A stretch of DNA of 2,234 bases from Escherichia coli (GTDB taxonomy: Bacteria > Pseudomonadota > Gammaproteobacteria > Enterobacterales > Enterobacteriaceae): the NCBI RefSeq assembly GCF_003334255.1, contig NZ_QOWU01000139.1. The stretch is one strand, 5' to 3'. The position numbers and the translations under genes are program-made. A model generated the notes under the pieces. It saw only the letters and a program-made list of their open reading frames with translations, did no database searches and was not told the origin of the DNA. Shown here piece after piece: positions 659 to 1,449 of this stretch (position 1 is its first letter; the number at the start of each line of letters is the position of its first letter).

Positions 659-1126
659 ATGCCTGTTGCTATGGAGCAAGCAGACAAGAAGATTTTTTTT
701 CATCTGTGGTACAGCTATTGGCTGGAAGAGATGGTTTTCATACTCAGCAATAAAGCCGCTGCCATGTTGCGCGCCGGGGCGCTGATTGCTGCGGTATTGT
801 CCTTTCTTCTGGTTGGTTTTCCCGTCCTGATGAGCCTTTGGGGGCTGGCGTTTTTTGTTTTTTCCTGGTTTTGCAGCAAGTGTGAATTCGTCGCCGAACT
901 GGCGTGCTGGCAGAAACAGAGCTACCTTCGTCTGATTACGCAAAGGGATTTCATGAGCACTGAACGCCTGATTGAGCGCATTCTGTATCTGGAAGAAACG
1001 AACAGCGCATCCATGAAGGCGTTTGTCAGGCCCGCAAAAAACAAAGCGAGCGCATCTGTTGGTCTGTCTGCCAGCGAGCATTTGCGTTACTCCGAAAGGT
1101 TAATCTGCTGGTTGTGCGGCGTCTGA
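659..1126 (+). CDS. Hypothetical 155-aa membrane protein with two predicted transmembrane helices and a ~80-aa C-terminal domain carrying two CxxC motifs
   Basis: ATG at 659 follows GGAGG (648-652) at 6-nt spacing; the TTG at 653 used by the ORF track is less likely. Hydrophobic segments at about residues 34-58 and 61-73 (AGALIAAVLSFLLVGFPVL, LWGLAFFVFSWF). CSKC and CWLC motifs are present. Codon usage is enterobacterial-like with many CTG, GCG and GAA codons. Stop is TGA at 1124-1126. Confidence 0.65.
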   Translation: MPVAMEQADKKIFFHLWYSYWLEEMVFILSNKAAAMLRAGALIAAVLSFLLVGFPVLMSLWGLAFFVFSWFCSKCEFVAELACWQKQSYLRLITQRDFMSTERLIERILYLEETNSASMKAFVRPAKNKASASVGLSASEHLRYSERLICWLCGV

Positions 1127-1449
1127 TCGACTCCCGGCTGCGTGATGCTTTTACCGTCTTCCCTGACAGGCGGTAATGACACGTCTATGTTCAGCTTGAG
1201 TGCCATTGCGTACTCCGCCCGCGCGCCAGCTGAATCCTCCCAGCCTTCCAGCAAGTAAATGACATCGGCACACATGAGCATCGGAATACAAATGCTCATG
1301 TACTGCTGCTGGCTTAATCCGTCAGGCAACGTGGCAGGGTTCAGCACAACGTGCCCGTCTGCCGCGAGCCTCATCGCCTCTGTGAAAAACGCCGTTCTGT
1401 TGTGATCTTTGTATCCGGTCATTGGACCGGCGATATAAATCACTGCCAT
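1087..1449 (-). CDS. DUF4406-type protein, nucleoside 2-deoxyribosyltransferase-like fold, 120 aa
   Basis: ATG at 1449..1447 is preceded by GGGAGG at 6-nt spacing; stop TAA at 1089..1087. The N-terminal VIYIAGPMTG motif and the acidic EGWEDSAGARAEYAMA segment resemble the nucleotide-binding and catalytic-Glu regions of NDT-like proteins as I recall them. The start overlaps the stop of the upstream gene by 10 bp. Confidence 0.8.
   Translation of the reverse strand: MAVIYIAGPMTGYKDHNRTAFFTEAMRLAADGHVVLNPATLPDGLSQQQYMSICIPMLMCADVIYLLEGWEDSAGARAEYAMALKLNIDVSLPPVREDGKSITQPGVDQTPHNQQINLSE

Follow-up and report, generated by a model that had tools for sequence, protein, structure and literature searches.

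A DUF4406 gene in a P2-like Escherichia coli prophage: a predicted minimal NDT-like fold with a candidate nucleotide-directed active site

The window analyzed here is a stretch of 2,234 nucleotides from Escherichia coli (assembly GCF_003334255.1, contig NZ_QOWU01000139.1), whose minus strand carries a real, conserved and expressed-looking phage gene for a single-domain protein of the DUF4406 family (Pfam PF14359). We tentatively propose, with a confidence somewhat short of even, that this protein acts during phage replication as a Glu79-dependent N-glycosidase or transferase on 5'-phosphorylated (deoxy)nucleotides. The proposal draws on conserved residues and on a predicted fold related to that of the nucleoside 2'-deoxyribosyltransferases (NDTs). 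For the window itself this has little weight: RefSeq, Pfam and the PHROGs already cover the gene, its family and its fold class, and the identification is thus correct, ordinary and already known. The family as a whole is more noteworthy: it is very large, lies near replication genes in unrelated phages and has an invariant Ser/Glu/Tyr signature of a putative active site.

The gene and its prophage locus

The coding sequence (1087..1449, minus strand; 120 codons and a stop) is supported by the ORF list, the Pfam match and the RefSeq annotation, and its 120-residue product is exactly the sequence quoted for it (MAVIYIAGPMTG... and ...EGWEDSAGARAEYAMA). Translation signals can be read directly in the DNA: a Shine-Dalgarno GGGAGG (1456..1461, minus strand) lies 6 nucleotides 5' of the ATG, and the start of the gene shares 10 nucleotides with the stop end of the upstream ORF. 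The latter (1440..1658, minus strand; 72 residues, phrog_3459) keeps its place in the gene order of related prophages. It is preceded by a 78-residue ORF (1655..1891, minus strand; phrog_23826), with which it has a 4-nucleotide ATGA overlap, and by the 3' part of a DNA adenine methylase (Dam) gene that exceeds the window (1926..2234, minus strand), identified by the RefSeq annotation of the matching locus and as phrog_56 DNA methyltransferase. The result is a tightly packed block in which Dam is followed by the two small ORFs and then by the DUF4406 gene as the last member. The phage context suggested by the initial annotation was borne out: a P2-like E. coli prophage shares 99.4% identity with the window, RefSeq names the gene product there 'DUF4406 domain-containing protein', and the gene belongs to the early replication-associated block of that prophage. 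Base composition did not mark the region as foreign.

The same annotation had the gene ending an operon, which is true locally: a convergent gene comes next and overlaps the last 12 codons and the stop codon of the DUF4406 gene. On a larger scale it does not hold, as the same-strand early genes (the derepression protein and the replication endonuclease gpA) continue some 800 bp further downstream, and a search for an intrinsic terminator after the DUF4406 stop codon found none. The order on the 3' side is: the convergent gene, which is variable and encodes a membrane protein; a C4/isrK RNA module; and then the early genes again.

The DUF4406 family and its genomic neighborhoods

The assignment to DUF4406, which the initial annotation had made from the letters alone, is firmly supported by profile searches: residues 3-90 of the protein (1180..1443, minus strand) match positions 2-89 of the 91 in the PF14359 model with E=3.5e-33, and phrog_355, named 'nucleoside 2-deoxyribosyltransferase', is matched with E=6e-39. 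Members of the family are typically about 95-120 residues long with a single domain and occur in the replication or early modules of phages. The query is typical: it is matched over the full length of the family model, retains all family-invariant residues and differs in nothing essential; its tail is longer, variable and disordered, and its end overlaps the convergent gene. Database names for family members contradict each other, including NDT, dCMP deaminase, MazG-like and hydrolase. Actinophage genes annotated 'MazG-like' or 'dCMP deaminase', which looked like possible fusions, proved to encode DUF4406 on its own, at about 125 residues. NCBIfam yielded no match for DUF4406 or its neighbors, nor did the PADLOC defense-system models at E<=0.1. 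In the library searched, the literature on DUF4406, PF14359 and DUF1937 offers genome-annotation mentions at most, with no functional study found, and that on phage NDT-like enzymes covers DmtZ and retron effectors, with nothing on DUF4406.

The family is very large: 9005 representatives of 50% identity clusters match at E<=0.001 in a library of 1.84 billion proteins. Homologs are encoded by 505 phage genomes of Proteobacteria and Actinobacteria, in replication and recombination modules, and by about 1% of sequenced phages. In lambdoid relatives the gene adjoins O/P/DnaB-type replication genes; in other phages MazG-type pyrophosphatases, DnaQ-like exonucleases or DNA methylases are found close by. 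The present prophage, Brujita, Alfacinha1 and a Brachyspira prophage each have a DNA methylase immediately upstream of the gene or at most three genes from it. When the neighbors in 80 viral loci were clustered, no partner proved obligate (24 of 65 loci had the most frequent cluster), and a Dam-type methylase cluster occurred within four genes in just 6 of 65 viral loci; hence, a strict DUF4406-methylase module is rejected. The contigs encoding three distant representatives, at 0.7-3.7 kb, had no informative neighbors. Among 60 longer homologs, the fusions were sporadic, with HTH, zinc-finger or DUF551 partners only, and a metabolic fusion domain was absent. Accordingly, neither an obligate neighbor nor a fusion indicating a substrate was found.

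Predicted fold and candidate active site

The AlphaFold model has a core with pLDDT >93. Order stops at about residue 96, and pLDDT falls below 50 in residues 104-118, within the variable C-terminal tail (residues 93-120; 1090..1173, minus strand). The predicted fold is flavodoxin-like α/β and superposable on structures of the NDT family: with four strands, it represents the NDT/DNPH1/MilB fold in minimal form. Fold searches by two methods led from the DUF4406 model to the NDT superfamily, and the best 36 Foldseek matches were all NDT, DNPH1, MilB, BcmB or PA1492 structures, with NDTs at the top (2A0K, E=2.3e-4). At the sequence level the link is borderline: the profile comparison with 2A0K, the Trypanosoma brucei NDT, gave E=0.014, and hhalign against DNPH1 gave E=0.048 with 1% probability. 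No usable alignment with the L. leichmannii NDT was obtained by hhalign, the PF05014 model had no match to the DUF4406 protein at E<=10, and a single-sequence search of PDB sequences returned chance matches only (E>=0.17). It is therefore mainly the predicted fold that points to the NDTs. Of the two families against which the initial annotation would have checked the protein, PF14359 was matched and PF05014 was not; the placement in the NDT-like superfamily holds through the fold searches.

Conservation was gauged in an alignment of 246 DUF4406 homologs, from which the percentages in this paragraph are derived. Three residues, G8, F21 and S73, are invariant, and the query has every one of G8, F21, S73, E79, Y50, P38, P42, W70, G75 and A76, which are conserved at 97-100%. 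In the AlphaFold model, the strand C-termini and the loops after them hold nearly all the positions conserved at 90% or more; this is the location of the active site in the NDT-like fold. Three conserved elements are of note. The first is Y5-I-A-G8-P-M-T-G12 (1414..1437, minus strand), comprising strand β1 and the next loop: the VIYIAGPMTG motif to which the initial annotation drew attention is indeed conserved, at Y5 (92% Tyr, 8% Phe), I6 (96%), G8 (100%), P9 (94%), M10 (92%) and G12 (94%). The second is a family-specific loop between β2 and α2, N37-P-A-x-L-P-D-G-L-S-Q-x-Q-Y50 (1300..1341, minus strand), with N37 94%, P38 99%, A39 96%, P42 98%, G44 94%, L45 93% and Y50 99%. The third, S73-A-G75-A76-R-A-E79-Y-A-M-A83 (1201..1233, minus strand), contains a putative phosphate-binding Ser/Gly pair and the putative nucleophile Glu, E79, whose codon is at 1213-1215 on the minus strand. 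This is the acidic region in which a catalytic Glu had been suspected. The conserved part is S73 (100%), G75 and A76 (99%), E79 (99%) and A83 (98%), whereas E68 (19%), E71 (57%) and D72 (18%) vary; thus, the motif is real and the relevant Glu is specifically E79.

The equivalences with NDT-family enzymes are taken from alignments, not from superposed coordinates. Two independent alignments agree on three of them: Y5 in strand β1 corresponds to the triad Tyr (DNPH1 Y24), S73 to DNPH1 S98, and E79, at the position of the catalytic Glu at the start of the helix after β3, to DNPH1 E104 and the nucleophile Glu of the T. brucei NDT. The triad Asp/Asn of helix α2 was not recovered: both alignments place Cys54 there, in a variable column (C 74%, D 7%, G 7%, S 4%), and a neighbor such as Y50 or D43 could take its place in space. 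The active-site likeness was thus found in Tyr5, Ser73 and Glu79, and not in the triad Asp/Asn or the C-terminal half. The protein lacks strand β5 and the C-terminal helix, and the C-terminal half of NDT/DNPH1 is missing. Hence, its pocket must be more open or built differently.

A likeness to the nucleotide-directed members of the superfamily is seen in the third element. DNPH1/Rcl is a 2'-deoxynucleoside 5'-phosphate N-hydrolase that acts as a sanitizer of hmdUMP; MilB and BcmB are N-glycosidases of CMP and hmCMP. DNPH1 S98/G100/E104 and MilB S97/G99/E103 have the same S-x-G-x-x-x-E spacing as S73/G75/E79, with the Ser six residues before the Glu. In DNPH1, phosphate is bound by S98 and the covalent intermediate is formed by E104 (PMC10603095); the MilB residues with these roles are S97/G99 for phosphate binding and E103 as nucleophile (PMC4081090). 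The LYFCGSIRG stretch of DNPH1 aligns with the N-terminal motif of DUF4406, and the N37-Y50 loop appears, from the alignment, to be placed like the DNPH1 element (residues 54-59) carrying E55/H56. There are clear differences: the triad Asp (DNPH1 D80, MilB D78) corresponds to the variable Cys54; MilB Phe22-Arg23 has no counterpart; and DUF4406 is without the fifth strand and the C-terminal helical extension of DNPH1, MilB and BcmB, such that the strand and helix completing the partner subunit's active site, including DNPH1 S128', have no equivalent.

With the T. brucei NDT, DUF4406 shares a near-identical N-terminus (KIYIAGP in the former) and, besides the nucleophile Glu, the Pro after β2, which aligns with P38. 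In the L. leichmannii NDT, Asp92 binds the 5'-OH. Canonical NDTs (PF05014, EC 2.4.2.6), a group that includes Leishmania PDT besides the L. leichmannii and T. brucei enzymes, have an Asp in contact with the 5'-OH where DUF4406 has Ser73, and a C-terminal third, including residues given to the neighboring active site, that is missing in DUF4406. The Asp/Asn by which NDTs hold the 5'-OH is described as missing from the hydrolases of the superfamily, and the Pro after β2 as typical of transferases (PMC12884076).

The best functional analogy among phage proteins is DmtZ of the 2-aminoadenine Z-genome phages, an NDT-fold enzyme acting on dNMP: it is a dAMP hydrolase and deoxyribose-5-phosphate transferase with N77 as triad Asn (PMC12884076). 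DmtZ has a non-acidic pocket for the 5'-phosphate together with the transferase-type Pro, a combination that DUF4406 putatively shares; unlike DUF4406 it has about 145 residues, five strands and a full Tyr/Asn/Glu triad, and is genetically tied to PurZ0/DutZ, whereas partners of this kind and any link to a modified genome are lacking for DUF4406. PA1492 (PDB 1T1J), a structural-genomics protein of the DUF1937 family, belongs to a different Pfam family and is uncharacterized too; it therefore adds no functional information on DUF4406.

Candidate activity and alternatives

The residue mapping favors a 5'-phosphate substrate over a nucleoside. If the proposed activity is correct, the enzyme would follow the retaining double-displacement chemistry of the superfamily to split a 5'-phosphorylated (deoxy)nucleotide at its N-glycosidic bond: Glu79, oriented by Tyr5, would attack C1' to give a covalent (deoxy)ribosyl-5-phosphate-enzyme ester, with the 5'-phosphate held by Ser73/Gly75 and the Gly8-Gly12 loop. 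The intermediate could then be resolved by water, as in the N-glycosidases DNPH1 and MilB, or alternatively by another base in a phosphodeoxyribosyl transfer as in DmtZ. Since the canonical acid Asp is missing, protonation of the leaving group would have to come from the conserved β2-α2 loop (D43, Q47, Y50). During phage replication, the role of the protein would be to condition or sanitize the nucleotide pool. The initial annotation correctly left the function open. A bolder version, to which we give only a small chance, is that DUF4406 constitutes a distinct Asp-less and lid-less 'mini-NDT' enzyme class, with acid/base chemistry supplied by the β2-α2 loop, which serves phages of many phyla for a purpose other than ordinary salvage. 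In that version it would either cleave a nucleotide-derived immune signal or, as a phage analog of the human pool sanitizer DNPH1, destroy specific modified or damaged dNMPs, such as N6-methyl-dAMP or 5-methyl-dCMP from degraded methylated DNA, or dUMP/hmdUMP, and so keep them from being re-incorporated.

The alternative implied by the common name is a true nucleoside 2'-deoxyribosyltransferase, swapping bases among free deoxynucleosides for salvage or the adjustment of base composition. PHROG 355 and many GenBank phage records use the NDT name, a roseophage paper assumes an NDT role for a homolog, NDTs lead the Foldseek matches, and P38 (99%) occupies the position of the transferase-typical Pro of the T. 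brucei NDT (PMC12884076). Yet these names are homology transfers, not assays, PF05014 has no match, the protein has none of the C-terminal residues by which NDT active sites are completed, and the position that would bind the 5'-OH is an invariant Ser, as in the nucleotide-specific DNPH1 and MilB. We consider this reading unlikely. Given the apparent 5'-phosphate preference and the missing acid Asp and C-terminal lid, the NDT name is probably wrong in detail.

A second alternative takes its cue from the TIR domains (SARM1, ThsB) and the NDT-like effector of retron Ec86, which have a related flavodoxin-like fold and a catalytic Glu and cleave nucleotides or NAD in phage-host conflict. By analogy with TIR/SLOG relatives, DUF4406 might serve anti-defense, cleaving (as an enzyme) or sequestering (as a sponge) immune signaling nucleotides, whether derived from NAD+/ADP-ribose or not, instead of acting on the dNTP pool. 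We rate this slightly lower still: NDT-family matches consistently outrank TIRs in both fold searches, the secondary Pfam matches are families of the NDT clan (DUF1937 and Nuc_deoxyrib_tr), the PADLOC models are silent, and the invariant nucleophile Glu and Ser-x-Gly phosphate motif fit mononucleotide glycosidases.

It is very improbable that the substrate is a nucleotide within DNA or at DNA ends, with base excision or exchange linked to the neighboring Dam methylase and exonuclease. Such an activity would accord with the nearby methylases in several phages, with nucleases as frequent neighbors and with a pocket opened by the missing C-terminal lid. Against it stand the scarcity of Dam-type clusters in the related viral loci noted above, a 90-residue core without a DNA-binding domain or basic surface motif, and fusions that are few and mostly to HTH or uncharacterized domains. 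In addition, NDT-fold enzymes are not known to act on polymeric DNA.

The allele is rare: out of 5426 complete E. coli genomes, 27 have it. Its nucleotide homology with the other alleles in E. coli stops at window position ~1137 or ~1171, and the C-terminal tails vary among alleles. That the gene is a decaying or non-functional passenger of the prophage, for which this rarity, the variable junction in the tail and a pN/pS close to 1 in the closest allele pairs (based on 4-12 differences only) might speak, is scarcely credible against an intact and translationally coupled ORF with a strong Shine-Dalgarno, the retention of all family-invariant residues, a pN/pS of 0.43-0.52 in more divergent E. 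coli pairs and the maintenance of the family across thousands of clusters. All the E. coli alleles keep the motif residues intact, and E79 and the Tyr-Gly motif are conserved in the family at large.

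Family placement and naming of the DUF4406 protein

The minus-strand open reading frame at 1087-1449 codes for a protein of 120 residues, which starts MAVIYIAGPMTG and includes EGWEDSAGARAEYAMA, both exactly as quoted in the initial annotation. It certainly belongs to the DUF4406 family (Pfam E=3.5e-33, model positions 2-89 of 91) and also matches PHROG 355, 'nucleoside 2-deoxyribosyltransferase' (E=6e-39); when 1.84 billion cluster representatives were searched exhaustively, 9005 relatives were recovered at E<=0.001. AlphaFold, supplied with an alignment of 77 sequences (A1), models a core with pLDDT 87-98 across residues 1-90 (pTM 0.78) and the predicted topology beta1(3-7)-alpha1(14-30)-beta2(34-36)-alpha2(47-59)-beta3(63-66)-alpha3(74-85)-beta4(89-91). 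The top 36 places of a Foldseek search with this model are taken by nucleoside 2-deoxyribosyltransferases (NDTs), DNPH1, MilB, BcmB and PA1492, the best match being 2A0K (E=2.3e-4). At the sequence level the link to these enzymes is only borderline: the family profile reaches the T. brucei NDT with E=0.014 and hhalign pairs DUF4406 with human DNPH1 at E=0.048; no alignment was obtained with the L. leichmannii NDT, and PF05014 gives no score for the 120-residue protein while it does match a few homologues. Fold and motifs together give good support to its placement in the NDT superfamily, and the DUF4406/NDT-like identification first made from the sequence proves correct: it withstood both refutation tests set out with it, on the profile placement and on the conservation of the putative catalytic residues.

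The database names for the family conflict with one another: NDT, dCMP deaminase, MazG-like and hydrolase are all in use. Two stand-alone DUF4406 proteins of ~125 residues, Mycobacterium phage Ariel gp162 (locus L002, 2474-2854) and Arthrobacter phage Daob gp55 (locus L003, 2471-2848), are called 'MazG-like pyrophosphatase' and 'deoxycytidylate deaminase' in GenBank. These look like mis-transfers; Ariel has a genuine MazG-like gene two genes downstream of gp162. As RefSeq already annotates the gene ('DUF4406 domain-containing protein' at the matching locus) and the family is present in Pfam and PHROGs, the finding itself is already known. The remaining interest lies in the family, which is very common in phages and inconsistently named; in the literature searched, no enzyme assay of any member turned up.

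The putative active site and its predicted chemistry

In DNPH1 the catalytic triad is Y24/D80/E104: E104 becomes covalently linked to deoxyribose 5-phosphate as an ester, the leaving base receives its proton from D80, and the phosphate is bound by S98 and S128' of the partner subunit (PMC10603095). MilB uses E103 as the nucleophile and holds the phosphate via S97/G99 (PMC4081090). Nucleoside transferases hold the 5'-OH with an Asp/Asn that nucleotide-specific members lack (PMC12884076). With DNPH1 and NDT sequences verified against their PDB chains, alignments to T. brucei NDT and to DNPH1 gave the same residue mapping: Y5 pairs with DNPH1 Y24; S73-x-G75-x-x-x-E79-x-x-x-A83 with S98-L-G100-V-G-Y-E104-L-G-R-A108; and C54 with D80, whose place in the T. 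brucei enzyme is taken by the triad Asn.

Across 246 homologues G8, F21 and S73 are invariant (100%), followed by E79, Y50, P38, G75 and A76 (99%), P42, M57 and A83 (98%), W70 (97%), N17 and N37 (94%), R18 (92%) and Y5 (92%, Phe in the remainder). In the acidic region singled out in the initial annotation, the acidic residues other than E79, namely E68 (19%), E71 (57%) and D72 (18%), are not conserved. The column of C54, at the triad-Asp position, contains C (74%), D (7%), G (7%) and S (4%). In the predicted topology nearly all of the highly conserved residues map to the strands' C-terminal ends or to the loops after them, the pocket location in the NDT fold. A family-specific loop, N37-P-A-x-L-P-D-G-L-S/T-Q-x-Q-Y50 (residues 37-50), probably sits where the DNPH1 element with E55/H56 lies.

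By these alignments the DUF4406 protein retains the Tyr, a Glu at the nucleophile position and a phosphate-type Ser-x-Gly; it has no conserved acid at the triad-Asp position, and the entire C-terminal strand and helix, by which the neighboring active site is completed, are missing. From this signature, as read from the aligned sequences, the predicted chemistry is that of a nucleotide enzyme, not a nucleoside enzyme, and its acid would be non-canonical. The database names would make the protein a nucleoside transferase, which is less likely because Ser73 is invariant and the C-terminal part is missing. With a confidence that falls a little short of even, we infer a Glu79-dependent N-glycosidase or phosphodeoxyribosyl transferase acting on a 5'-phosphorylated (deoxy)nucleotide. 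In such an enzyme Ser73/Gly75 together with the Gly8-Gly12 loop would hold the substrate, and Glu79, oriented by Tyr5, would attack C1' to give a covalent sugar-phosphate ester; the beta2-alpha2 loop would provide the missing acid, and the ester would be resolved by water (N-glycosidase) or by a second base (phosphodeoxyribosyl transfer). Among phage enzymes the nearest functional precedent is DmtZ, which has the NDT fold and works both as a dAMP hydrolase and as a deoxyribose-5-phosphate transferase (PMC12884076); unlike DUF4406, it is full-size with a complete triad.

Genomic neighborhoods in phages

By tblastn, the domain occurs in 505 of 50,697 phage records, mainly from Vibrio, Mycobacterium, Gordonia, Arthrobacter and Pseudomonas phages. 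Ten annotated phage genomes each have it as a small gene standing alone, usually within the replication/recombination module or surrounded by small early genes; DnaQ-like exonucleases, a polymerase processivity factor, RusA, SSB/Erf and MazG-type pyrophosphatases are among the neighbors. Several of these phages, and a Brachyspira prophage, have a DNA methylase directly upstream. For closer relatives we surveyed 80 IMG/VR loci (cluster counts are out of 65 loci): lambda-type O-like initiators, DnaB-like helicases or P-like loaders, Ren-like and CII-like proteins and unknown nin-region families recur, the most widespread cluster reaching 24/65 loci at most. No informative fused domain was seen in longer homologues. 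What recurs throughout is co-location with DNA replication genes, with no obligate partner; DUF4406 is presumably co-expressed with them, and the neighborhood fits an enzyme acting on a common nucleotide pool.

Nothing but occasional adjacency points to a DNA-directed activity tied to Dam: a Dam-type methylase cluster lies no more than four genes from DUF4406 in just 6/65 loci. A signal-degrading or sponge-type anti-defense role is a less likely possibility that TIR-like fold neighbors and a position within an accessory region would suit; no positive evidence speaks for it, as TIRs rank below the NDT matches and PADLOC returns no match.

In the P2-like (Peduoviridae) Acidovorax phage Alfacinha1, DUF4406 forms the N-terminus of a 303-residue protein, gp47 (locus L010, 3001-3912), whose gene starts before that of a cytosine-specific methyltransferase has ended; the second gene downstream belongs to the PAPS-reductase family. 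Such surroundings could be linked to DNA modification.

The host prophage and the surrounding genes

The window matches, at 99.4% identity, part of the E. coli JNEC-KY204 chromosome, where the annotation shows a complete P2-like prophage inserted next to chpSB/ppa and equipped with an integrase, Cox and genes for P2-family capsid, terminase, baseplate and tail; the phage-like operon of the initial annotation was therefore rightly recognized. Its early strand runs from Cox through small ORFs, a 3'-5' exonuclease, a ParE-like protein and a DNA adenine methylase to two small hypothetical genes, DUF4406 and a convergent gene, followed by a 'derepression protein', a hypothetical gene and the replication endonuclease (gpA). 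DUF4406 is indeed the last gene of a tight co-directional block, but does not end the early strand, whose genes restart ~800 bp on; no terminator-like hairpin was found 3' of its stop codon.

Two minus-strand ORFs precede it, of 78 (1655-1891, phrog_23826) and 72 residues (1440-1658, phrog_3459), neither with a match in Pfam, NCBIfam or PADLOC; their order with DUF4406 is kept in related prophages. These two overlap by ATGA and the DUF4406 start overlaps the stop of the 72-residue ORF by 10 nt, so the three genes look translationally coupled. A Shine-Dalgarno GGGAGG (1456-1461, minus strand) can be read 6 nt 5' of the DUF4406 ATG. The motif residues are intact in all E. coli alleles compared, with pN/pS of 0.43-0.52 for the more divergent pairs; these motifs and the coupling signals contradict a pseudogene.

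The C-terminal tail (residues ~93-120, the last ~28 codons; 1090-1173, minus strand) lies outside the conserved domain, is predicted disordered (pLDDT <50 for 104-118) and is replaced by other sequence in other alleles; it is best seen as belonging to a variable junction rather than to the enzyme. Nucleotide homology among alleles breaks at ~1137 or ~1171, just past the conserved domain, which suggests a recombination junction of variable cargo inside the 3' end. The allele is uncommon, found in 27/5426 complete E. coli genomes at megablast sensitivity. The convergent plus-strand ORF (659-1126, 155 residues, phrog_6315) has a perfect TATAAT at 592-597, and its 3' end runs 40 nt into that of DUF4406. 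It has no Pfam match, and its unbroken hydrophobic stretch at about residues 32-73 is consistent with a two-helix membrane hairpin. Related E. coli prophages share the layout with a convergent gene differing in sequence and length (215, 174 or 155 residues): in its behavior, the slot that separates DUF4406 from the C4/isrK module resembles a variable moron/cargo site.

That module comprises, on the minus strand, the isrK Hfq-binding sRNA (RF01394, 452-526; 64.3 bits, threshold 50), which ends with a hairpin and U7, just upstream of the C4 antisense RNA (RF01695, 329-416; 82.8 bits, gathering threshold 45), both preceding the 73-residue 'derepression protein' ORF (51-272). With a sub-threshold Rfam c4-a1b1 target match at 487-539, it looks like a P1 immI-type (c4/ant-like) control module within a P2-like prophage. 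Megablast against deposited phages gives nine matches, eight of which (P88, Xuanwuvirus) fall in 202-583; the ninth, Citrobacter phage Shae_phiSM, spans 88-582. Finally, the C-terminal end of Dam, in the 3' part of its gene, carries a CxxC...CxxC segment (RQCDACGRHGGGYCPDCG; 1953-2033, minus strand) that also matches a short part of exonuclease VIII/RecE models (phrog_20376, E=6e-9; NF007259 positions 526-552); hence, a small zinc-ribbon-like module seems to be common to unrelated phage DNA enzymes.
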